Notes: a model not told the origin generated them from the sequence alone. A DNA stretch of 64,000 bases from an uncultured Acidobacteriota bacterium (GCA_964481255.1 CAYZTZ010000001.1:38236-102235); one strand, 5' to 3'; shown: positions 1-44,052, counted from the stretch's first letter. Program-made: numbers and translations.

Positions 1-678
1 ACGGAGTTTTTGCCGGAGACGGAGGACGGGACGTCGGACCGCGCAGGAGCCGAGAAGGTGCTTCCCCGGCTTTCAGAGATCGACGCTCTGGTTATCGGGC
101 CGGGAATGACGACCCAGCCATCGACCCGGAGGCTTGTGTGGGAACTTGTAAGGCGCTCCCCGATACCGGTGGTGCTGGATGCGGACGGGATCAACGCATT
201 TGTCGCTCCCGCTGAACCGCTTTGCAACGAAGCGGGGCAGCCGGTGGTCCTCACCCCTCACCCCGGGGAAATGGCGCGACTCGTCGGCCGGAAAATCCAG
301 GATATCCAGAAAAACCGTTTGGCCACGGCCCGCGATTACGCCGCGGAAAGGGGCTGCCACGTGATCTTGAAAGGGTTTCAAACCGTCGTCGCCGCCCCGA
401 CAGGCGAAGTTTACATCAACAGCACGGGAAATCCGGGCATGGCGACCGGCGGGACGGGGGACATTCTGGCCGGCATGGTGGGGCGGTTCGTCGCATACTG
501 GAACCGGCAGAGGAAAGAGGAAAAATCGCATCATCTGTCGGAATACCTGTCCGCCTCCGTTTACCTGCATGGATTGGCCGGGGACATTGCCGCGGCCCGC
601 GAAGGGATGGAGTCGCTGATCGCGACCGATCTCCTGAAGTATCTTCCTCAAGCGTTCCGGAACGTGTTGAACTCATGA
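1..678 (+). CDS. nnr: NAD(P)H-hydrate dehydratase domain (Nnr / YjeF C-terminal domain), 5' partial at window edge
   Basis: The reading frame is open from base 1; the TTG at 10 is internal. It carries the GTGDILAG motif typical of the YjeF_C carbohydrate-kinase-like domain, and its stop overlaps the tsaE start (ATGA). Confidence 0.7.
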   Translation, partial: TEFLPETEDGTSDRAGAEKVLPRLSEIDALVIGPGMTTQPSTRRLVWELVRRSPIPVVLDADGINAFVAPAEPLCNEAGQPVVLTPHPGEMARLVGRKIQDIQKNRLATARDYAAERGCHVILKGFQTVVAAPTGEVYINSTGNPGMATGGTGDILAGMVGRFVAYWNRQRKEEKSHHLSEYLSASVYLHGLAGDIAAAREGMESLIATDLLKYLPQAFRNVLNS

Positions 679-1193
679 CATCGCGCGCAAGAGCTCCTCA
701 GAGAAAGGCCGTCCGCCTTGTCAGCAGATCTGCGGAGGAAACCGAAAACATCGGATGTCGCATAGCCCGGGCTTTGCCGGTGCCTGGTGTCGTGCTTCTG
801 AGAGGCGCTCTGGGCAGCGGCAAGACCACCTTGACGCGGGGCATTGCCAGGGGATTGGGTGTTCAGGACCCCGGAGCCGTTTGCAGCCCGTCTTTCACCC
901 TGGTGAACATCTACCGAGGCGTCTGCCCCGTCTATCATGTGGATCTCTACAGGCTTGAAGGGGAAAGAGACTTGTATTCGATCGGCCTGGACGATTTCCT
1001 GGGCCGCGAAGGGGTGACCGTCGTCGAATGGAGCGAAAGACTCCCTTACCAGGTGCCGGGGGCCGCCATCGTGGAGTTGCAGGAAACCGGCGAAAACACG
1101 CGAATGATATGGATTCAATCGCCGGATAAGCGCGCGCGGCCTGTGCCGGAAGGCGTAGTCCGACGGCGCACCGGAAAGAGGCATGGTGATTGA
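675..1193 (+). CDS. tsaE: tRNA threonylcarbamoyladenosine biosynthesis ATPase TsaE (YjeE)
   Basis: The sequence MTSRARAP...LRGALGSGKTTLTRGIARGLG has a P-loop with GSGKTT and is about 170 aa. It is translationally coupled to nnr, the usual nnr-tsaE neighbourhood. The ORF-track ORF 222..1193 is a high-GC upstream extension of this gene. Confidence 0.75.
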   Translation: MTSRARAPQRKAVRLVSRSAEETENIGCRIARALPVPGVVLLRGALGSGKTTLTRGIARGLGVQDPGAVCSPSFTLVNIYRGVCPVYHVDLYRLEGERDLYSIGLDDFLGREGVTVVEWSERLPYQVPGAAIVELQETGENTRMIWIQSPDKRARPVPEGVVRRRTGKRHGD

Positions 1194-2631
1194 CTTGAAA
1201 CGTTCGGGGTGGCCTGAGGATCCCAGGATTTGGAAGGATTACGCTTCGGGTTCCCTCGAGCGCTTGTCGCCGCAGACCGCGCGATGGGACACGCAGATGC
1301 TCAAGGCGCAGGCGGCCTTGATTCGAAGGAATTCCTCGGCGCCTGAGGATCTGCTGCGTCGCCTGGAGGACGGATTGGGATCGGGCTATGCCCGGACCTT
1401 GGAGAATTTACGGGGCCTCCGGCGCCCCGGGACCGTGGTTGTCGCCGCCAGAATCCATGCGTGTCTGTTGGGAGGTCCGCTCTTTCAATTCCTGAAATGC
1501 CTGACCGCCGTCAAGGCGTGCCGGGAACTGGCGCGGTATTCGATTGAGGCGGTGCCCCTGTTCTGGGTCAGCGACGCTCCCCCGGCGGTTTTTTCGCAAT
1601 GGAGCGCCTGTATGCCGGATCATGAAGGGGAGCTTCATCGGTTCAGCCTGCAGCCGCCCGAACCGGCTCCTTGCGCCGCAGACCCTCTCCCGCGCGATCG
1701 TGTGGAGGCGCTCCTGGCTGAGATCGAAAGCCTGGGACGGGGCGATTTCGACGCCGAGACCCTGGAGACGCTCCGTGCGGCCTATGGACGCGGAGCCACC
1801 CTTTCGTCGGCGACGGCCCGGCTTTTCCTGGATTGGATGAGTCCGTGGGGGGCGATTGTGCTTGATGCCGGGGCGCCGGAAGTGAAGACTGTCCTGGAAG
1901 GGGCGTCGGCCCTGCTCCGCGGCAAGGTCGACAGGGTCGAGACGCTTCTCCGTGCGCAGGCGGCGCTTCTGGCGGAGAACGGCTATGACGCGCCGGCGAA
2001 GGATGGCGCTCTCCAGGATTTTCCGGCACAAAGCTGTGTCTTTCCCGTCGCCGTGGCGGTTCTGGATCCCGGTGAAGTCCACTCCTTCGTCATGGCGCTT
2101 CCGGTTTTCGAAGAGCTGGGGGTGTCGCCGCCCCTGGCGTGCCCTCGGTCCAGGGCGGCGGTCGTGGACGCCCGCAGCCGGCGGACGCTCGTGAAATACG
2201 GCCTGGATGCGCGGGACTTATTTGCGGATGAAGGCGAATGGACGGAAAAAGTGGCAGGGGCCGTCCCGTGCGAGGCGGAGCGGAAGCTGAGAGAGCTGGG
2301 CGCGGAAATCGAGCTTCGGATGGCGGAACTGAAGGCCCTGATCCCCGCGGGAATCGGATCAAGGAAAATGCCGGATTCCTGCGAAGAGAGGATACTATAC
2401 CAGATCGAGAAACTGCGGCGGCATTGCGAACAGGCCGCCGCAAGACGCCTGTCGGCGGCGGAGCGGAGGATACGCCGGGCGCGCAATTTCCTCGCGCCGG
2501 CGGGATTCCCGCAGGAGCGGGCGCTTGCGGGCATATTTTTCCCGCTGCGTTACTCCCGGTCGGTTCTGGGACGTATTCATGACGAGCTGGAGCTTTTTCA
2601 ATTCGAACCGCGTCTTATCTTTATGGATTGA
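1183..2631 (+). CDS. putative bacillithiol biosynthesis cysteine-adding enzyme BshC-like protein
   Basis: This 482 aa cytosolic protein has a predicted C-terminal coiled-coil (RKLRELGAEIELRMAELKAL). It lies directly upstream of an LmbE/PIG-L deacetylase (BshB-like). The call rests on gene context and overall architecture only. Confidence 0.35.
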   Translation: MVIDLKRSGWPEDPRIWKDYASGSLERLSPQTARWDTQMLKAQAALIRRNSSAPEDLLRRLEDGLGSGYARTLENLRGLRRPGTVVVAARIHACLLGGPLFQFLKCLTAVKACRELARYSIEAVPLFWVSDAPPAVFSQWSACMPDHEGELHRFSLQPPEPAPCAADPLPRDRVEALLAEIESLGRGDFDAETLETLRAAYGRGATLSSATARLFLDWMSPWGAIVLDAGAPEVKTVLEGASALLRGKVDRVETLLRAQAALLAENGYDAPAKDGALQDFPAQSCVFPVAVAVLDPGEVHSFVMALPVFEELGVSPPLACPRSRAAVVDARSRRTLVKYGLDARDLFADEGEWTEKVAGAVPCEAERKLRELGAEIELRMAELKALIPAGIGSRKMPDSCEERILYQIEKLRRHCEQAAARRLSAAERRIRRARNFLAPAGFPQERALAGIFFPLRYSRSVLGRIHDELELFQFEPRLIFMD

Positions 2632-2634
2632 GCC

Positions 2635-3339
2635 ATGCATCTGGACATACTTGCTTTCGGCGCGCACCCTGACGATGTGGAGCTCTTTGCGGGCGGAACT
2701 CTGGCCAAAATGGCTGCGTTGGGCCATTCCACCGGCGTCGTGGACATGACGCGCGGGGAACTGGGCACACGAGGGACAGCGGCGCAGCGAAGGAAGGAGG
2801 CCGCCCAGGCCGCCGCGATTCTCAACCTGAAGGTCCGGGAAAACCTGGGATTGCCCGACGGCGCCGTGCCGGTGACGCCGGCGGCGCGGCTCAAGGTCAT
2901 CCGCATTCTGAGAAAGTACCGGCCGAGCGTGGTTTTGACGCATTACTGGGACGACCGGCACCCCGATCATGCCGCCACGAGCCGGCTGGTATCGGAAGCC
3001 GCGCATCATTCCGGACTGGCCAAGGTGAATACAGGTCAAAGGCGGCATCGTCCCAAGGCGCTCCTCTACTTTAAGATTCCTCCGCATCAAGCGCCGAGCT
3101 TTGTCGTCGATGTCTCGGATTACCACGAACAGCGCCGGGCCGCCATCGCGGCCTATCGCTCCCAGCTCTTTGATCCCTCCAGCGACGAGCCGTCCACCAC
3201 GTTGAGCCAACCGGATTTCCTGGCTCATGTGGAAAGCCTCCATTCGTTTTACGGGACGCTGATCGGGAAACGAAAAGGGGAGGCCTTCCATATCAAAGGG
3301 GTCCTGGAGATCCCGGATATCGTCCGGCACTTTCAATAG
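2635..3339 (+). CDS. PIG-L/LmbE family deacetylase (BshB1-like N-acetylglucosaminyl-malate deacetylase)
   Basis: The N-terminal sequence ILAFGAHPDDVELFAGGTLAK is the AHPDDxE zinc-binding motif of the LmbE family. The protein is 234 aa. Confidence 0.6.
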   Translation: MHLDILAFGAHPDDVELFAGGTLAKMAALGHSTGVVDMTRGELGTRGTAAQRRKEAAQAAAILNLKVRENLGLPDGAVPVTPAARLKVIRILRKYRPSVVLTHYWDDRHPDHAATSRLVSEAAHHSGLAKVNTGQRRHRPKALLYFKIPPHQAPSFVVDVSDYHEQRRAAIAAYRSQLFDPSSDEPSTTLSQPDFLAHVESLHSFYGTLIGKRKGEAFHIKGVLEIPDIVRHFQ

Positions 3340-13758: not shown

Positions 13759-13833
13759 AGGCGCGTAGCTCAGGGGGAGAGCACTTCCTTGACGCGGAAG
13801 GGGTCAGCGGTTCAAATCCGCTCGCGCCTACCA
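13759..13833 (+). tRNA. tRNA-Val (anticodon GAC)
   Basis: I folded it manually. The acceptor stem AGGCGCG pairs with CGCGCCT, the D-stem GCTC with GAGC, the anticodon stem CTTCC with GGAAG around loop TTGACGC, and the T-stem AGCGG with CCGCT around loop TTCAAAT. The discriminator is A and a CCA end is encoded. Confidence 0.85.
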
Positions 13834-21844: not shown

Positions 21845-22016
21845 CAAACTCCGCCCTTGAAAAACCGACTGCAAAAAAAAGCGCCCCCGCGCCGCCGTGT
21901 GGCTAGTCTATTTGAACCTTGTCGCCAAGGGGGTGTTCTACGCGCTGCGTCAGGCAATCAAGTTCCCGAAGGAAAAGCTCGCACACGGCAGCGCGATACG
22001 AACTCCCATCAAATAG

Positions 22017-22053
22017 AATGTTGGCTCAAATAATTGTCGCCATCACCAACATT
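22017..22053. promoter_or_regulatory. inverted repeat AATGTTGG-N21-CCAACATT inside an AT-rich island
   Basis: This was seen directly in the sequence. The island (22005..22080) lies upstream of ymdB and downstream of the barrel gene, and is a candidate operator/promoter. Confidence 0.2.
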
Positions 22054-22287
22054 GCAGGGGCTTATTATATATTACTTGAGTCCGCGCCCCGGGTCAAGGA
22101 ATCCGCGCGGGTGCGCGGGGGGATCACGCTATTTGGCGGCAGGGAGCCGGGCCGGGGGCGCCGGAGGACTAAAGACGCGCCACCCCCGGTCGCGTCCCCT
22201 TCCAGTTAGTGCCCGCCCCATATCCCGGTCATGCGCAGTCCTTCGTCCCATGCGTCCGCGGAATCCTTGGGGCCGGACCGCATGCGT

Positions 22288-24492
22288 CTAGAAGCGGTAG
22301 CGGATCGTGCTGTAGGCGATGTGAGCCGTGTAATCCGGGAACGCATACACGCCGGAGAGGTAACTTGTGGTGGTCCCCGACCCGATCGTGTAAAGAAACC
22401 CCTCGTACTGATCGTCCTTGTAACCGTATTTTTCGTAGCTATAGCCCACGGTCCAGTCGAGATCCCGCGAGATGAGAATCAGCGCCCGGGGATTGAAGGA
22501 CCGGCGATGCGTGTCGTCATAGGAGCGGATCGGGAAGAGCAGGGTAGCCGGGGTCCCGTCCGAAAGGGTCTGCGATTGAAAATCCACCCATCCCTTTGTT
22601 TCTTGTATCAGGGCGGAGGCTTTCAACACTAGCCTGGCCGACACGGGCCAGTCGCCTCCAAACTCCACGGTCCAGTTCTTATCCCGAAGTTTCGCTCCCC
22701 AGTTGAAGGCCGCCGTGGTTGGCGGAACATTGGGATCGAAGCAGTTCGGCGAGCTCGGCGGGCAGGTCGCGGCGTTGACGGTGCGGTGATAGGAGTCGTA
22801 ATCGATCCATTCGATGTCCCCGAACAGCGTCACGCGGAATTTTTCCGGATCGCCGTAGGAGAGGCTTCCGTAAAGCTCCTTCCTATGATCTTTCAGCCGG
22901 CCCAATACGACGTCCTGGTAATCGTTTTTCTTGTAGTAAGCTTCGAAACCGAAATCCAGCAACGGCGCCGGCGTCCAGTCCAGATAGGCTTTGAGGAGAT
23001 GCTGGTTCAGATCGGAGACGTCAAAGGAGCGGTTAAAACGCTCCAGATAATAGGGAGAATAGGCGTTGAAGCCCGCGTTGTCGGTTAGGAATTCCGAGCG
23101 CCTCCGGGTGTATTGGTATTTCAGGCGAGCCGTCACGACATCCGACGAGGTATTGGACCATTGCACGAAAAACCTGTTTTCCGATGTCTCCTCGGAATCG
23201 AATCGGTTCCTGTTGATGTCCAGATAGTCGTAACCCGCGCTCCAGCGGTTCCCCGGCGAAAGCCGGTAGCCGGCCTCGAATCCGGCGTTGTTTTTCGTGT
23301 ATTCGTAGCGCTCCCCTTCGCAGACGACATTCACGTTGGCCGGCGAGGTCGTCCCGGGGGCGAAGCAGACCAGCCCGGTTGTCGTGAGGGGGACATTGAA
23401 GGCGATGTCGGTCGACGTGTTGCGTCTCCGGTAGTAGTTGTAATAAAGGCGCGTGTCCAGGCGGCGCAACGGTTCCGACGCAAAGGAGACCTGCCCGGTC
23501 ACATTCTCGACCTTGCCGTAGAACACCGGCGAACTCGGGTTGGTCGGGGTCAACGCGGCGGAACCGGATGTATTCAAAACCTCATCGATCATATCTGCGT
23601 CGTCGGTAACCCTGTCGTAGGTCAGCCGTCCGGAGAGCGTGGAATTCAGAAACAGCTTCCGCAGCATGCCGCTGGCGCTGATCCTCGTGTAGTTGTTGTT
23701 CGGCGCGAAGGTGGCCGTGTCCATCCCGAAACCGAAGAACGGATTCTGAAATTCAAGGAATTCGTTGTCGTTGCTGAAGATGCTTTCCAGCCAATGGACC
23801 GCGAAATGGGCCCGCGGCGACTGATACCCTCCCTCGACGGAGACATTGACCGTGGAGTGGTGCAGCGGGTAGGGGAGGTCGATGAAGCCGTTGCCGGGGC
23901 TTGTGCCCAGGGCCGCCGCGTCGACCTTGTTGATGCCGGTTTGGCGGACTTCATTGCCTTCCACGACCGCGTACCATGGCGAGCGTCCGGAAAACTCGAA
24001 CTCCCCGCCGATGTCCCGCCGCTTCGACGAGAAACTGAAGGAGGACCAGGGCGGCACCTGCGAGTTGGCCAGTTCGGCGGGAACGGTCGCGAAGAGCCAG
24101 AGTGTATGCTCTCCGATCCCGGTGTAGGGCAGCCGCGCGCCGTTCGGGCCGAAGCCGAAATTGTGGACCAGCCAGTCGGCATGGAAATCGAACCGGAACC
24201 TTCCATGCACGCCGCCCTGTGCGGAAAGACGCATGTCGTCGCGGCCGAGGTTTTCGCCGAACATATCGAAGTAGAAAAGACCGTTGCGTCCCTGAAGATC
24301 GAAAACGCCGAAGGGCCCGTCGGACAAATCGCGGTATTCGTTCAGTTTTGCGGCGTCCTTCGTCTCTTCGTCGGTCCCGATTCCGCCCGCTCCGATACTG
24401 CCGGACAGCTTGAAACCGTTATCCTGCGCCGAGGCCGCGCCGCATCCGGCCGAGAGGATTGCGATAAGGATGGAAAGGAGCGTCGCTTTCAT
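22288..24492 (-). CDS. MtrB/PioB-family outer membrane beta-barrel protein (decaheme-cytochrome-associated porin)
   Basis: The 734 aa protein has a signal peptide (MKATLLSILIAILSAGCGAASAQD), composition rich in Y/G/N/S/T/D in alternating patterns, and a C-terminal aromatic residue (YRF). Its start lies 9 nt after the decaheme cytochrome stop, with an SD GGAGG. The size matches the MtrB/MtoB/PioB family. Confidence 0.7.
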   Translation of the reverse strand: MKATLLSILIAILSAGCGAASAQDNGFKLSGSIGAGGIGTDEETKDAAKLNEYRDLSDGPFGVFDLQGRNGLFYFDMFGENLGRDDMRLSAQGGVHGRFRFDFHADWLVHNFGFGPNGARLPYTGIGEHTLWLFATVPAELANSQVPPWSSFSFSSKRRDIGGEFEFSGRSPWYAVVEGNEVRQTGINKVDAAALGTSPGNGFIDLPYPLHHSTVNVSVEGGYQSPRAHFAVHWLESIFSNDNEFLEFQNPFFGFGMDTATFAPNNNYTRISASGMLRKLFLNSTLSGRLTYDRVTDDADMIDEVLNTSGSAALTPTNPSSPVFYGKVENVTGQVSFASEPLRRLDTRLYYNYYRRRNTSTDIAFNVPLTTTGLVCFAPGTTSPANVNVVCEGERYEYTKNNAGFEAGYRLSPGNRWSAGYDYLDINRNRFDSEETSENRFFVQWSNTSSDVVTARLKYQYTRRRSEFLTDNAGFNAYSPYYLERFNRSFDVSDLNQHLLKAYLDWTPAPLLDFGFEAYYKKNDYQDVVLGRLKDHRKELYGSLSYGDPEKFRVTLFGDIEWIDYDSYHRTVNAATCPPSSPNCFDPNVPPTTAAFNWGAKLRDKNWTVEFGGDWPVSARLVLKASALIQETKGWVDFQSQTLSDGTPATLLFPIRSYDDTHRRSFNPRALILISRDLDWTVGYSYEKYGYKDDQYEGFLYTIGSGTTTSYLSGVYAFPDYTAHIAYSTIRYRF

Positions 24493-24501
24493 AAGGGCCT
24501 C

Positions 24502-25479
24502 CTATCGCGTCAGGTATTTGCCGCGCGTGGCGGGGGCGTTGCTGCCGTGAATGGCGTTGTGACAATTGAGACAGGACCGGGCTACAAATCTCGTGTTGGG
24601 CGTCGTCGTCTTCGAACCCGGGATGCGGACAAACCCCTGATCGCCGCTGTAGGCCGTGCCGGGATGCCGCGACCAATCGTGGCAGTCCTGGCAAAGGTTC
24701 GGAACCTTCTCGGCCAGCAGTTTTGTATGCGAGGATCCGTGCGGCGTGTGACACGACAGGCAGTTTTCCTCCACGGCGGGGTGCTGGAACAGGAAGGGGC
24801 CGCGCTTTTCGGCGTGGCAGCTCCAGCATTGGACGTTCAGCGTTTCGTGTTTGATCATGGCATGGCTCTGCGCGCCGTGCGGGTTATGACAGCTGGAGCA
24901 GGTGACCTTGCCTTCGACGATCGGGTGGTGGGAAGTCTTGCCGATCTGCACCCGGACCTGCTTGTGGCAGCTGACGCAGGTCTGGTATTCCAGCTGCCGC
25001 TCGGTCGTCACAAGAGGGCTGACCGGAAGGTCGCGCCGCGTGAACGCCAGGGCGGAACCACGCGGCGTCGCGGCATGCACCGCGTGGCAGTCGTTGCAAC
25101 GAACGTCGTTGCGCCCGTGGCGGCCCGATTCCCAGAACGCAAGATGACGGTTGCCCGCATGGCAGCTCATGCACGCCTGCGTCTGTTCCATGGCCGGGAC
25201 TGCGCCCTTGCCGAAACGAACGGGATGCCTGTTTTCGGCGGGAGCGCTGACGTGCTTCGCGTTTTCACCATGACACGAGAAACAGGCCTTGCCGATTTCC
25301 GCGGGCGAACCGGGCTCTCCCCTGGCGCCGTGCTTGGTCTCCATGATGCCCGCCTGGTCTTTATGACAGGCGAGACAGATTTGGGGATCGCTCTGCGCCG
25401 ACGCAAAGCGGCCGTGCGCGAAAAACAGGGCATGAAGCAGAAAAGCTGTGACGGAGATCCTAAAAGAGCGACGGGTCAT
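24502..25479 (-). CDS. periplasmic decaheme c-type cytochrome (MtrA/MtoA/DmsE family)
   Basis: The 325 aa protein has a signal peptide and exactly ten CXXCH motifs, which I counted (CLACH, CFSCH, CMSCH, CNDCH, CVSCH, CSSCH, CWSCH, CLSCH, CQDCH, CLNCH). It sits immediately upstream of the beta-barrel gene. Confidence 0.85.
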   Translation of the reverse strand: MTRRSFRISVTAFLLHALFFAHGRFASAQSDPQICLACHKDQAGIMETKHGARGEPGSPAEIGKACFSCHGENAKHVSAPAENRHPVRFGKGAVPAMEQTQACMSCHAGNRHLAFWESGRHGRNDVRCNDCHAVHAATPRGSALAFTRRDLPVSPLVTTERQLEYQTCVSCHKQVRVQIGKTSHHPIVEGKVTCSSCHNPHGAQSHAMIKHETLNVQCWSCHAEKRGPFLFQHPAVEENCLSCHTPHGSSHTKLLAEKVPNLCQDCHDWSRHPGTAYSGDQGFVRIPGSKTTTPNTRFVARSCLNCHNAIHGSNAPATRGKYLTR

Positions 25480-25651
25480 GCGCCAATCTCCCTGCGGCCG
25501 GACGCCGCATGCGCCGATTTTCGCCCGGCTTCAACCCTCAGAAGGGTTCGTCCCCGGGCATATCTCCCGGCTGAAAACATGCCTGCCTTTTTTGTTCGTC
25601 GCCTTTGTAGATTTCGAGACGATCGAGACAGGCTGGTTTTTTATATAAATA

Positions 25652-25680
25652 TTTCAGGTTTATAAATCAAGCTGAAAATG
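25652..25680 (-). promoter_or_regulatory. candidate sigma70 promoter for the cytochrome-porin operon (TTGATT-N17-TATATA on minus strand)
   Basis: An AT-rich island (25640..25700) in a high-GC genome lies about 170 nt upstream of the cytochrome ATG. The -35 and -10 hexamers were read on the minus strand. Confidence 0.35.
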
Positions 25681-25756
25681 AAGGATGATGTCAAAATCGC
25701 CCGTCTCAAGGTCGAACGGATATTTGCCGGACGGCGTGGTCGATGGGGACCCGGAC

Positions 25757-28700
25757 CTACGACAGGTAGCGCGCCAGCATGCGGCCTGTGTGGGAATTCG
25801 GGCAGGAAACGATATCCTCGGGCGTTCCTTCGAACACAATACGGCCGCCGGCGTCTCCTCCCTCGGGCCCCAGGTCAATGATCCAGTCCGCCGTCTTGAT
25901 CACATCCAGGTTATGCTCAATCACAACCAGGGAATTGCCTCCACTGATGAGCTTGTCGAAGGCGGCGAGCAGCTTGCGGATGTCATCGAAATGCAGGCCG
26001 GTGGTCGGCTCATCGAAAACATACAGCATGTTGCCGCGGCCCGACTGCGAGATGAAGGAAGCCAGCTTGATTCTCTGGGCCTCTCCGCCGGAAAGGGACG
26101 TCGCGGATTGGCCGAGGCGGAGATAGTCCAATCCGATATCTTCCAAGACCTTCAGCTTGCGGATCAGCGAAGGCCTCCCTGCGAAGAATTCCATCGCTTC
26201 GCGAACCGTCATTTCCAGCACCTCGGCGATATTCCTGGACTTGTACCGGACCTCGAGCACGGAGCTCTTGAACCTTTTCCCGCGGCAGTCCTCGCAGGTC
26301 AGTTCGACGTCGGCCAGAAACTGCATCTCGACGGTGACCGTGCCGTTCCCCTGGCAGGTCGGGCATCGCCCGGCCTCGAGATTGAACGAGAAATGGCCGG
26401 GCCCGAAGCCCCGGCTGAAGGCGTCCTTCGTCGAGGCGAAAATGCGCCGGATCTCGTCGAAGGCTTTCGTATAGGTGGCGGGATTGGAACGCGGCGTCCT
26501 CCCTATGGGAGACTGATCCACGAGAACGACGTCGGAAATGAGCTCCGCGCCGCGAAGAGCGTCCAGTCCCGTCAGGGGTTCCTTGAGCTCCCCCTTCGCC
26601 TTCTTGACTGCGGCGTAGAGAACGTCGTGAACGAGGGTCGATTTCCCGCTGCCGCTGACGCCGGTGACGCAGACGAGCATTCCCAGGGGAATCCGGACGT
26701 CCAGATGTTTCAGGTTATGCCTGTGCGCGTTGAGGATCTCGATCCGCCGCCCGCTGTTCCTGCGCCGGAAAAGCGGAACGGGGATCTGGAGTTCCCGCCT
26801 TAAATAGAGGCTGGTGAGCGACCGTGTGTCCTCGAGCAGCGATGGGAAGCTGCCCTGAAAGACGACCTCCCCTCCGTTTTCGCCCGCCCTGGGCCCGAGA
26901 TCAATAATATAGTCGGCCGACCGCATGATTTCCTGATCATGCTCGACCACGAGCACGGTGTTGCCCAGCGCCTGAAGACTCTTCAGGATTTCCACCAGCC
27001 TCCGGCTGTCTCTCGGATGGAGACCGATGCTCGGTTCGTCCAGCACATACAGAGCGCCGACCAGGGTCGATCCCAGGGATGTAGCCAGCTGGATCCTCTG
27101 CGCCTCGCCCCCTGAAAGCGACGAGGAAAGACGGTCCAGGGCGATATAGTCGAGACCCACGCGAACGAGCAGATCCAGCCGGTGGCGGATTTCATGCAGA
27201 ATCCTTTCCGCTATCGAGGCCTGCTGCGGGGAGAGTTCCAGGGTTTTGAAAAAATCGGCCGCCTGCCCGATCGTCATCTGCGAAACCCTGGTAATGGGCA
27301 ATCCGCCGACGCGGACATCGCGCGCTTCCCGGCGCAGCCTCTCCCCGCCGCAGGAGAGACAGTTCGCGTAGCCCCGATACCGGCTGATGAAAATGCGCAC
27401 GTGCATCTTGTATTTTTTGCGCTCGAGGTAATCGAAAAAGCCGAGAATCCCGGGGAAATGGCCCTGGCCGCGGATGATCTTGTCCCTCTGATTTTCCGGC
27501 AGTTCTTCCCACGGCACATCGACCGGAATACCCTCGCGCGCGGCGAACTGGAGCATACGGTTGTGAAACCCCCGGTAGCGCTGTCCGCTCCACGGATGGA
27601 CGGCTCCCTCGCCGAGGCTCCTCGACTTGTCCGGAATAATCCGGTCGAAATCCAGCGTCAGCGTGTTGCCGAAACCCTGGCACTCCGGGCAGGCCCCAAA
27701 AGGATTGTTGAATGAAAAAAGCCTGGGTTCGGGCTCCTGGTAGGAGATACGGCACAACTGGCATTCGAAGGCTTCGCTGAACTTGACAAGGATGCCGGCG
27801 GGATGCCTGAGCCAGCGGATGTCGGGATGCCTCGCAAGGAGCATGGCTTCTGTTTCCGTCGGAGCGTCCGTCAGAAGGAGCACTTCCACGTGTCCTTCCG
27901 AGTCCCTGCTGCAGATCTCGATGGAGTCCACGAGCCGCTTCCGCATGCCCTCCTCGACCGTCAGACGGTCGACCACGACATGAGCTTCTTTGCATCCGCT
28001 TTTCCGCAGGGCGTCCGCCGCTTCGGACAGTTCCACCAGCTCGCCGCCGACCAGAAGCCGCACATAACCCTGCCGCTGCAGGCCGGGGATCATCATCGCA
28101 AGGCGATCGGCCGGACTTGCGGCGGCTGCTCGCGGCCTGGGCGGCCTGCGGGCGGAGGAGGCTTGCTGTGGCGGCGCGTCCAGCTCAAGGCGCATGCACA
28201 GATAAAATCGCTGGCCTTGGGGCAGAGACAGGACAAAGTCCGCGATCTTCTGGGGCGTGTCTTTTTCGACGACGCGCCCGCAGGAATGGCAGTAGGTCGT
28301 GCCGATGCGGGCGTAAAGCAGGCGCAGGTAGTCGTGAATCTCGGTCACGGTCCCCACGGTCGACCGCGGGTTGCGCGCGTAGTTCCTTTGACGGATCGAG
28401 AGCGCAGGACAGATGCCCTCGATGTCGTCGACATCCGGCCGGTCGATGCGTTCCAGAAACTGGCGCGCGTATGCGGAAAGAGAGGCGATATAACGGCGCT
28501 GGCCTTCCGCGTACAGAGTGTCGAACGCGAGACTGCTTTTCCCGCTGCCGGACACCCCCGTCACCACCGTCAGGGAATTCAAAGGGATGCGGACCGTGAT
28601 GTTCTTGAGGTTGTGGACACGCGCGCCCTTGACGACGATGGCTTCTTCCTGTTCCGATTTCACGGGCTGGGCATCCTCCGGAGGGCCACAGAATGGATGA

Positions 28701-28855
28701 TAGGGAGGGCCCGGAACCTTGTCAACCGACGTTTCAGACCCGGCATGGCGCGCTGCGGCCGCCCCTAAGCCGCTCCAGAGGAAAGGATTTATCGCTGAAA
28801 ACACGCGGCCGCTTTTGACATTGCCGCGGCCGCCGGACGATGCAATAATTCCCAC
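25757..28855 (-). CDS. uvrA: excinuclease ABC subunit A (UvrA); true start probably an internal GTG near 28660
   Basis: It has two ABC ATPase modules (GVSGSGKSS, LSGGEAQR) and zinc-finger cysteines. The first roughly 64 codons of the ORF are low-complexity and would overlap the divergent neighbour's promoter. A small low-complexity insert (PPQQASSARRPPRPRAAAAS) is present. Confidence 0.9.
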   Translation of the reverse strand: MGIIASSGGRGNVKSGRVFSAINPFLWSGLGAAAARHAGSETSVDKVPGPPYHPFCGPPEDAQPVKSEQEEAIVVKGARVHNLKNITVRIPLNSLTVVTGVSGSGKSSLAFDTLYAEGQRRYIASLSAYARQFLERIDRPDVDDIEGICPALSIRQRNYARNPRSTVGTVTEIHDYLRLLYARIGTTYCHSCGRVVEKDTPQKIADFVLSLPQGQRFYLCMRLELDAPPQQASSARRPPRPRAAAASPADRLAMMIPGLQRQGYVRLLVGGELVELSEAADALRKSGCKEAHVVVDRLTVEEGMRKRLVDSIEICSRDSEGHVEVLLLTDAPTETEAMLLARHPDIRWLRHPAGILVKFSEAFECQLCRISYQEPEPRLFSFNNPFGACPECQGFGNTLTLDFDRIIPDKSRSLGEGAVHPWSGQRYRGFHNRMLQFAAREGIPVDVPWEELPENQRDKIIRGQGHFPGILGFFDYLERKKYKMHVRIFISRYRGYANCLSCGGERLRREARDVRVGGLPITRVSQMTIGQAADFFKTLELSPQQASIAERILHEIRHRLDLLVRVGLDYIALDRLSSSLSGGEAQRIQLATSLGSTLVGALYVLDEPSIGLHPRDSRRLVEILKSLQALGNTVLVVEHDQEIMRSADYIIDLGPRAGENGGEVVFQGSFPSLLEDTRSLTSLYLRRELQIPVPLFRRRNSGRRIEILNAHRHNLKHLDVRIPLGMLVCVTGVSGSGKSTLVHDVLYAAVKKAKGELKEPLTGLDALRGAELISDVVLVDQSPIGRTPRSNPATYTKAFDEIRRIFASTKDAFSRGFGPGHFSFNLEAGRCPTCQGNGTVTVEMQFLADVELTCEDCRGKRFKSSVLEVRYKSRNIAEVLEMTVREAMEFFAGRPSLIRKLKVLEDIGLDYLRLGQSATSLSGGEAQRIKLASFISQSGRGNMLYVFDEPTTGLHFDDIRKLLAAFDKLISGGNSLVVIEHNLDVIKTADWIIDLGPEGGDAGGRIVFEGTPEDIVSCPNSHTGRMLARYLS

Positions 28856-43667: not shown

Positions 43668-44052
43668 TATCGCCGGAGTCGGCCAGGCAATCGCGTCCCT
43701 GTCCTCAGGGCCGAGGAAAGTCCGAACTCCACAGGGCGGTGTGCCTCGTAACACGAGGGAGGGGCGACCCTACGGAAAGTGCCACAGAAAACATACCGCC
43801 TCGCGCGGCGAGGTAAGGGTGAAAAGGTGCGGTAAGAGCGCACCGCGCCGCTGGTAACAGCGGCGGCACGGTAAACCCCACACGGAGCAAGGTCAAATAG
43901 AAAAGCGATTCCTGCAAGGGATAAGGACGGCCCGTCCGATGCTTTTGGGTAGACCGCTGGATCCCCGGGGCGACCCGGGGACTAGATGAATGATTGCCGT
44001 CCCTGCGCCGCAGGGAAACAGAATTCGGCTTACGGCCGGCTCCGGCGACACA
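43668..44052 (+). ncRNA. rnpB: RNase P RNA, bacterial type A
   Basis: It has the conserved blocks GAGGAAAGTCCG.ACTCCACAGGGCG, GTAAGGGTGAAAAGGTGCGGTAAGAGCGCACC, GGTAACAGCGGCGGCACGGTAAACCCCAC.CGGAGCAAGGTCAAATAG and CTAGATGAATGATTGCCG...ACAGAATTCGGCTTAC. The P1 helix TCGCCGGAGTCGGCC pairs with GGCCGGCTCCGGCGA. Confidence 0.9.

Follow-up and report, generated by a model that had tools for sequence, protein, structure and literature searches.

Do two adjacent minus-strand genes of an uncultured Acidobacteriota bacterium encode an electron conduit across the outer membrane, and in which direction would such a conduit carry electrons? The genes lie in a stretch of 64,000 nucleotides (GCA_964481255.1 CAYZTZ010000001.1:38236-102235), and the whole of this stretch is called the window below. 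A preliminary description had presented them as a stand-alone porin-cytochrome module of the MtrAB/MtoAB/PioAB type. Soils, wetlands and sediments in which iron and humic redox cycling is intense harbor abundant Acidobacteriota. To our knowledge, no MtrAB/MtoAB-type conduit of this phylum has been tested experimentally. Sequence comparison and structure prediction make it highly probable that the two genes encode an outer-membrane porin-cytochrome conduit of this family.

The upstream gene, mtrA/mtoA-like, was located at 24502-25479 (minus strand) and encodes a periplasmic decaheme c-type cytochrome of 325 aa. The downstream gene, mtrB/mtoB/pioB-like, was located at 22288-24492 (minus strand) and encodes an outer-membrane beta-barrel of 734 aa with the C-terminus YRF. 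Both open reading frames (ORFs) were recovered as previously claimed. Sec-type signal peptides, read by eye from the sequence and ending in ASA followed by Q, are present in each protein, in agreement with the earlier proposal that both are secreted.

The cytochrome was compared with curated profiles and with a solved structure. It scored 222.1 bits against TIGR03508, the DmsE family of decaheme cytochromes, for which the curated cut-off is 192.2, and the alignment covered model positions 3-257 of 258. PF09699 and related Pfam families also matched. A phmmer search aligned residues 20-321 with Shewanella baltica MtrA (6r2q_A) at E = 8.8e-53, with 39% identity across 258 columns. The protein carries exactly ten CXXCH motifs, the number claimed earlier, with their first residues at 35, 66, 103, 128, 168, 194, 218, 240, 263 and 303. 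In an alignment of 81 sequences that includes the MtrA of 6R2Q, all 30 residues of the motifs are invariant, and exactly ten further His residues (H50, 76, 121, 135, 185, 201, 233, 247, 272 and 311), the distal ligands, are invariant as well. This is the pattern expected of ten bis-His hemes. The multiheme profile comparison proposed in the preliminary description thus placed the cytochrome above the curated cut-off, and no grouping with non-conduit decahemes was found. The cytochrome gene is the sole multi-CXXCH ORF in the window. A second ORF with CXXCH, at 648-1184 (minus strand), was rejected as spurious; it is without a signal peptide and has a single motif at its C-terminus.

The barrel was assigned in a similar way. 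PF11854 (MtrB_PioB) matched it from end to end (7-635 of 635) with 207 bits, against a cut-off of 23. When the single sequence was searched against the PDB with phmmer, no match was returned. A profile of 28 barrel sequences matched MtrB (6r2q_B) at E = 1.2e-28. The AlphaFold2 model of the barrel (pLDDT 78.7) contains about 27 long strand segments. The top Foldseek match of this model was again 6r2q_B (E = 7.8e-34, template modelling (TM) score 0.76/0.85), and the next matches were TonB-dependent receptors with TM of about 0.4 or less. The predicted topology, which had been named as a check, is therefore an MtrB-like fold and not that of a generic porin, although the structural alignment with MtrB shows only 19% identity. 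In the 28-sequence alignment, F734 at the C-terminus does not vary. A possible lipoprotein signal in the barrel (LSAGC) was rejected, because Cys17 is present in 1 of the 28 homologues and so does not mark a lipobox. The profile and fold matches to MtrB, the TIGR03508 and PF11854 scores and the conservation of all 20 heme ligands bear out the proposed family assignment of the pair.

The two genes are closely spaced. The cytochrome stop codon TAG (24504-24502) overlaps the Shine-Dalgarno sequence GGAGG of the barrel gene (24498-24502, minus strand; read from sequence), and 9 nt separate the genes, the barrel ATG being at 24492; the gap and the ribosome-binding site are as first reported. All of 72 homologous pairs from 67 loci share this arrangement: the decaheme gene comes first, the barrel gene follows it directly on the same strand, and about 9-16 nt (mode 9) lie between them. 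Translation of the two genes would be coupled in this arrangement. Inspection of ORFs in the flanks of the cassette gave no plausible small ORF or hidden third gene. The ratio of nonsynonymous to synonymous substitution rates (dN/dS), measured against the relative L007, was about 0.09 for the cytochrome and about 0.13 for the barrel; the value for pheT, measured against L092, was 0.13. The pair is under purifying selection as strong as that on pheT.

The following mechanism is proposed. The pair would be expressed from its own conserved promoter, with coupled translation, and both products would be exported by Sec. Ten c-hemes with bis-His ligation would be attached covalently to the cytochrome in the periplasm. 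By homology with solved MtrAB, the cytochrome is predicted to thread the lumen of a barrel of about 26 strands; the ten hemes of MtoA, PioA and MtrA are aligned and their barrels are 26-stranded (PMC10654088). The outcome would be an insulated heme wire that spans the outer membrane. Neither here nor in about 13 acidobacterial relatives is a surface cytochrome or extracellular reductase encoded beside the pair. The decaheme's outer end would therefore most likely trade electrons directly with soluble or diffusible species, such as Fe(II), chelated Fe(III) or humic quinones. The periplasmic and inner-membrane partners would be encoded elsewhere in the genome.

Several observations weigh against the conduit reading. 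First, the barrel aligned with nearly all of TIGR03509 (model 10-662 of 662) and scored 161.4 bits, which is below the curated cut-off of 240. Ten barrels of relatives, both acidobacterial and from Burkholderiales and including proteins named MtrB/PioB by NCBI, also fell under this cut-off, at 167-221 bits. This indicates that the cut-off is conservative, not diagnostic. The MtrB/PioB profile check was thus passed with PF11854 and in the end-to-end alignment with TIGR03509, but not in the TIGR03509 score. Second, about 50 ORFs covering the whole window were surveyed with Pfam, and no gene for MtrC, NapC/NirT, CymA/ImoA, MtoD, HiPIP (high-potential iron-sulfur protein), DmsAB or another molybdoenzyme, or a small cytochrome was found among them. 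Queries with NapC/NirT and multiheme/cytochrome b proteins in phmmer likewise retrieved nothing from the window. The reported lack of MtrC/OmcA, CymA/NapC and other redox genes within 20 kb therefore extends to all 64 kb, so that a working path to the quinone pool is hypothetical. Third, one flank of the pair contains thrS, pheS, pheT, zapB, zapA and ymdB, and the other contains uvrA, a gene for an NHL-repeat protein, tgt, secDF, tonB/exbB, relA, recA, lipopolysaccharide genes and genes of arginine and leucine biosynthesis (all from Pfam). Apart from the pair, the window holds housekeeping and biosynthetic genes only, so that the surroundings of the pair give no indication of iron or redox regulation.

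Relatives of the pair were then compared. The acidobacterial origin, which had been guessed from the sequence, was supported by PheT, whose best named homologues are from Acidobacteria/Acidobacteriota metagenome-assembled genomes at 62-67% identity; the nearest homologues of the cytochrome-barrel pair (the A-B pair) are acidobacterial too. Clustering at 50% identity leaves 2437 clusters of the barrel family with E <= 1e-3 and, at the stricter limit of E <= 1e-30, 532. Members of the acidobacterial clade are 58-78% identical to the window protein in the barrel and 67-81% in the cytochrome. The next relatives belong to Burkholderiales, Rhodocyclaceae, Acidiferrobacteraceae and Sulfurifustaceae, with 43-45% identity in the barrel and 50-57% in the cytochrome. 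About 13 distinct acidobacterial loci contain a bare A-B pair, with a partner gene in only one of them (L010). Within flanks of up to 10 kb on each side, none of these loci has a surface cytochrome gene beside the pair. The whole clade, and not the window alone, is therefore characterized by the bare layout. The record titles name Zodletone spring and an anaerobic digester as sources of relatives. In L010, two genes lie directly upstream of the A-B pair (L010:14-2383): one for a nine-heme cytochrome of 364 aa with a membrane helix at its C-terminus, the other for a cytochrome b561 of 424 aa that carries four c-heme motifs. They are a split form of the MtoC/CbcL-like multiheme/cytochrome b fusions that accompany many Burkholderiales pairs, and a candidate type of inner-membrane partner for the window's host.

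Among the characterized systems, the pair resembles MtoAB of Sideroxydans lithotrophicus ES-1 and Gallionella in having a decaheme cytochrome of about 320-330 aa encoded before an MtrB/PioB-family barrel, with no surface cytochrome. Its nearest relatives outside the Acidobacteriota are pairs of Burkholderiales and other Gammaproteobacteria, many of which have NapC/NirT or multiheme/cytochrome b genes beside them, an arrangement that resembles mto operons (PMC5566968). Near the A-B pair, a NapC/NirT tetraheme gene was found in 21 proteobacterial loci, and a nine-heme/cytochrome b561 fusion or the corresponding split pair in 15. These partner genes resemble cymA/imoA and mtoC of the mto operons (PMC5566968; PMC13390432). 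In contrast to MtoAB, the window pair has no gene for an MtoD/PmcA-type monoheme cytochrome, ImoA/CymA or MtoC with it, its host is an acidobacterium with relatives from anoxic habitats, and its use in Fe(II) oxidation is hypothetical.

The pair is like MtrCAB of Shewanella (6R2Q) in that all ten hemes and distal His residues are in register with MtrA and the barrel model superposes on MtrB. It differs from MtrCAB in having no MtrC/OmcA/MtrF and no adjacent CymA, and in the barrel, which is without the N-terminal CXXC of S. oneidensis MtrB. No CXXC occurs anywhere in the barrel, whose Cys residues are at 17, 376, 391, 577 and 584, and the first 100 residues of the 28 aligned homologues are likewise free of the motif. 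This barrel motif is said by Wee et al. in 2014 to be restricted to metal-reducing Gammaproteobacteria. In S. oneidensis MtrB, Fe(III) reduction depends on C42 of the motif (PMC12175506). Another two-component decaheme and barrel system with no surface cytochrome is PioAB(C) of Rhodopseudomonas palustris TIE-1. PioA has a long heme-free N-terminal extension (PMC10654088), of about 270 residues, which is lacking in the window cytochrome, whose heme motifs start as early as residue 35. The window showed neither a gene for a PioC HiPIP nor any sign of phototrophy. DmsEF, which works with DmsAB in Shewanella, pairs a cytochrome of the same DmsE family (TIGR03508) with an MtrB-family barrel. In contrast to DmsEFAB, no gene for a DmsAB-type molybdoenzyme is present in the window or adjoining the A-B pairs of relatives. 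Finally, MtrAB of Magnetospirillum magneticum AMB-1 is an A-B pair alone, without MtrC, in an iron-reducing organism (PMC7005843). In contrast to the window's host, this organism is an alphaproteobacterium.

The direction of flow would be set by the redox network of the cell and is not readable from the window. It is not encoded in the pair itself. MtoA partly rescues a Shewanella mtrA mutant (PMC7005843). Outward flow, in which soluble Fe(III) or humics would be reduced in respiration, is given not quite an even chance. Inward flow, as Fe(II) oxidation or electron uptake, is a lesser, still substantial possibility. Other uses are unlikely.

For inward flow, the same complex would run like MtoAB or PioAB. 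Electrons taken by its exposed heme from Fe(II) outside the cell, from Fe(II) minerals or from reduced humics would pass into the periplasm for energy conservation. The bare layout fits this direction, since MtoAB and PioAB also have no surface cytochrome and iron oxidizers are without MtrC (PMC7005843; PMC5566968). A neighbor-joining tree of the cytochromes rooted on MtrA may point the same way: the acidobacterial sequences are monophyletic and nested within those of Burkholderiales, Acidiferrobacteraceae and Sulfurifustaceae, in a tree that has no support values, is biased in its sampling towards the query and contains no reference MtoA, PioA or DmsE. The mto-type accessory genes in the loci of those proteobacterial relatives and the missing N-terminal CXXC of the barrel are further points in favor of electron uptake, and MtoA has been linked to magnetite oxidation (PMC12016527). 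However, the window has no MtoD/PmcA, ImoA or HiPIP gene, the relatives come from anoxic settings, and their pairs adjoin genes for aldehyde:ferredoxin oxidoreductase and electron transfer flavoprotein. We know of several Fe(III) reducers among the cultured Acidobacteriota and of no Fe(II) oxidizer, which also speaks against uptake. The gene neighborhood tool FeGenie treats MtoAB as ambiguous and labels MtrAB without MtrC as "probable iron reduction" (PMC7005843).

The pair could also be the membrane-spanning half of a larger system that feeds a multiheme cytochrome or terminal reductase located outside the cell and encoded at an unlinked site, either MtrC/OmcA-like or DmsAB-like as in DmsEFAB. 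The best curated family of the cytochrome is named after DmsE, the view covers only 64 kb of the genome, and sets of MtrABC genes have been reported in three metagenome-assembled Acidobacteriota genomes from a hot spring (PMC9671151). The characterized reductive systems, however, encode the extracellular component beside the A-B pair, and the window and the acidobacterial relatives have no such gene next to the pair, so this explanation is considered rather improbable.

The position of the pair between ymdB and uvrA was examined by comparing neighborhoods. In the Acidobacteria, the usual neighborhood of the pair has an aldehyde:ferredoxin oxidoreductase gene upstream, and an ATP-binding cassette transporter and methanofuran/tetrahydromethanopterin-type genes downstream. 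The window contains none of these. The closest relatives of the host by PheT, L094 (74%) and L092 (72%), both keep the synteny thrS...pheT-zapB-zapA-ymdB-uvrA-NHL. In both, the site is empty (L092:12798-16859 and L094:5702-9772): only about 350 nt separate ymdB and uvrA, and no A-B pair is present. This stretch contains a 6S RNA gene with its promoter, nearly identical to those of the window, and the gene lies directly downstream of uvrA. L092 and L007 are from one assembly (CAYYTC01), and L007 carries the A-B pair of that organism in the usual neighborhood. The empty site in L092 and L094, together with the pair of L007 at the usual place, indicates that the pair moved into the intergenic region between uvrA and the 6S RNA gene in the lineage of the window. 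The module usually resides elsewhere, and its ymdB/uvrA position is a lineage-specific relocation.

The rates of change were compared between the pair and pheT. Against L007, the two genes of the pair gave dN of 0.12-0.16 and dS of about 1.2-1.4; pheT against L092 gave a dN of 0.19 and a dS of 1.4. This comparable divergence, with dN/dS of 0.09-0.13, fits vertical descent and intragenomic relocation under purifying selection. The flanks of the cassette yielded neither repeats, direct or inverted, nor a target-site duplication, nor any mobility gene, and the 3' flanks of the relatives' pairs are not conserved.

The expression signals upstream of the pair were compared with those of the relatives. 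The preliminary description had proposed that the module carries its own AT-rich promoter in a region of 65% GC. The GC content of the window is 61%, which is lower than this figure. A promoter-like element TTGATT-N17-TATATA is present at 25642-25670 (minus strand), 191 nt from the ATG, with a T-rich stretch just upstream, and the surrounding 200 nt are 47% GC. A generic sigma-70 scan, however, made no call at this element, so that its support is the conservation among relatives. In L002, L005, L007, L008, L013 and L087-L089, the pattern TTGnnn-N17-TATA(A/T)(A/G) precedes the orthologous ATG by 236-246 nt. Across at least eight relatives the hexamers are conserved and the spacers vary. One match to the pattern was counted in the window against 0.2 expected, and this is not an independent test, because the pattern was partly taken from the window. 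The element is likely to be a genuine promoter.

A 5' leader of about 155 nt (25480-25635, minus strand) is predicted from the distance between the conserved -10 hexamer and the ATG, and no plausible small ORF was found in it. A hairpin GCGGC-GTCCG-GCCGC lies at 25494-25508 (minus strand), immediately 5' of the Shine-Dalgarno sequence GGGAG (25488-25492) of the cytochrome gene. The pattern GCGG(N5-9)CCGC followed by GGAG and ATG at the start of the decaheme gene is shared by the window, L002, L005, L007, L008, L013 and L087-L090, and was found upstream of no proteobacterial orthologue. The leader of the window did not fold significantly better than shuffled controls (z = -1.55), and neither did further leaders (-0.11 and -0.81). 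The one structure recovered by RNAalifold was an invariant 4-bp stem, and covariation was absent. A structured regulatory RNA is therefore not claimed, and the hairpin is taken simply as a conserved feature of an acidobacterial sub-clade. The promoter element and the leader hairpin moved together with the genes. On the 3' side, a weak terminator-like hairpin (GACGCG-N11-CGCGTC followed by TTT; low confidence) lies at 22174-22196 (minus strand), about 90 nt past the barrel stop codon. It was not called by a terminator scan; the terminators of hairpin and T-run type that follow the barrel genes of relatives are clearer.

The relocation also bears on whether the pair still serves in respiration. 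Its task might be a small one, for example the reduction of extracellular Fe(III) that is then taken up and assimilated, or it might be a relic left without partners after its move. The housekeeping surroundings, the missing co-located partner and the departure from the ancestral context would agree with this. However, selection on the pair equals that on pheT, all heme ligands and the C-terminal signal of the barrel are intact, and the promoter and leader moved along with the genes. In its ancestral context, too, the pair is solitary, and the relocation therefore did not part it from an adjacent partner. A non-respiratory role or a relic is accordingly very unlikely.

A more specific history can be suggested tentatively. 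The ancestor of the clade may have acquired a self-contained cassette, made up of promoter, leader hairpin, mtoA-like gene and mtoB-like gene, from Burkholderiales-type iron oxidizers, and this cassette might be able to relocate and to work without a co-encoded partner through generic periplasmic carriers. We regard this as possible and on the whole improbable. If it were true, anaerobic wetland and sediment Acidobacteriota would gain electron uptake from Fe(II), humics or a cathode, which no cultured representative of the phylum is known to have.

The preliminary description had suggested an undescribed route of extracellular electron transfer, and this was too strong. NCBI and JGI already list acidobacterial homologues, with 67-81% cytochrome identity, under the names "DmsE family decaheme cytochrome" and "MtrB/PioB family". 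The locus recurs in identical form on a 4.4-kb JGI contig (L001), where the cytochrome is labeled "DmsE family decaheme c-type cytochrome" and the barrel only "hypothetical protein". Homologues of PioA, PioB and MtoA in Acidobacteria have been surveyed (PMC10654088), and the hot-spring MtrABC genes mentioned above were reported before. The pair is thus an expected member of a large and already annotated family. The additions made here are modest: the stand-alone A-B layout across a clade, the empty-site evidence of relocation, and the conserved promoter and leader.

These additions have practical value. The bare A-B pairs of the window and its roughly 13 relatives form one coherent clade within the Acidobacteriota, kept under purifying selection, which is a concrete target for heterologous expression and for the reading of metatranscriptomes. 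The empty-site comparison shows that conduits can move as compact units with their own promoter, and this bears on how extracellular electron transfer spreads. It is also relevant to pipelines such as FeGenie that infer the direction of flow from gene neighborhood.

The immediate neighbors of the pair were only partly as described. On one side uvrA is adjacent as stated, but on the other side a 6S RNA (SsrS) gene, missed earlier, lies between the barrel stop codon and ymdB at 21880-22063 (minus strand; Rfam RF00013, 75 bits). A promoter-like site, TTGAC-N17-TA..AT, is located just upstream of it at 22069-22097 (minus strand) and was called by the sigma-70 scan.

A further multiheme protein was observed near the A-B pair of several relatives in which the pair has its usual acidobacterial neighborhood. 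Genes for a protein of about 455 aa are present at L002:4923-6293 and L005:2919-4283, and also in L012 and L013. The protein has a signal peptide, a metallophosphoesterase-like domain and a C-terminal tetraheme domain of the c554 type. Its gene contains a conserved in-frame TGA after ...EPCG, and the protein is conserved on both sides of this TGA. A hairpin GTACAGC-TCGGnGG-GCTGTA is located 14-17 nt downstream of the TGA. The metallophosphoesterase-tetraheme protein is therefore a candidate selenoprotein with a bacterial selenocysteine insertion sequence (SECIS) element. It was rejected as a partner of the window pair, its gene being absent from the window.

Other features of the window were also recorded. 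Genes for a BshC-like protein and a PIG-L (BshB-like) deacetylase are side by side at 1183-3339 (plus strand), which suggests bacillithiol-type low-molecular-weight thiol synthesis in this acidobacterium. A single tRNA gene lies upstream of thrS at 13759-13830 (plus strand), and a class A bacterial RNase P RNA (317 bits) lies downstream of recA at 43675-44047 (plus strand). The mechanically called uvrA ORF, at 25757-28855 (minus strand), has 1032 aa, and the orthologues of L092 and L094 have 969-974 aa. Translation of uvrA therefore probably starts some 60 codons past the first GTG.

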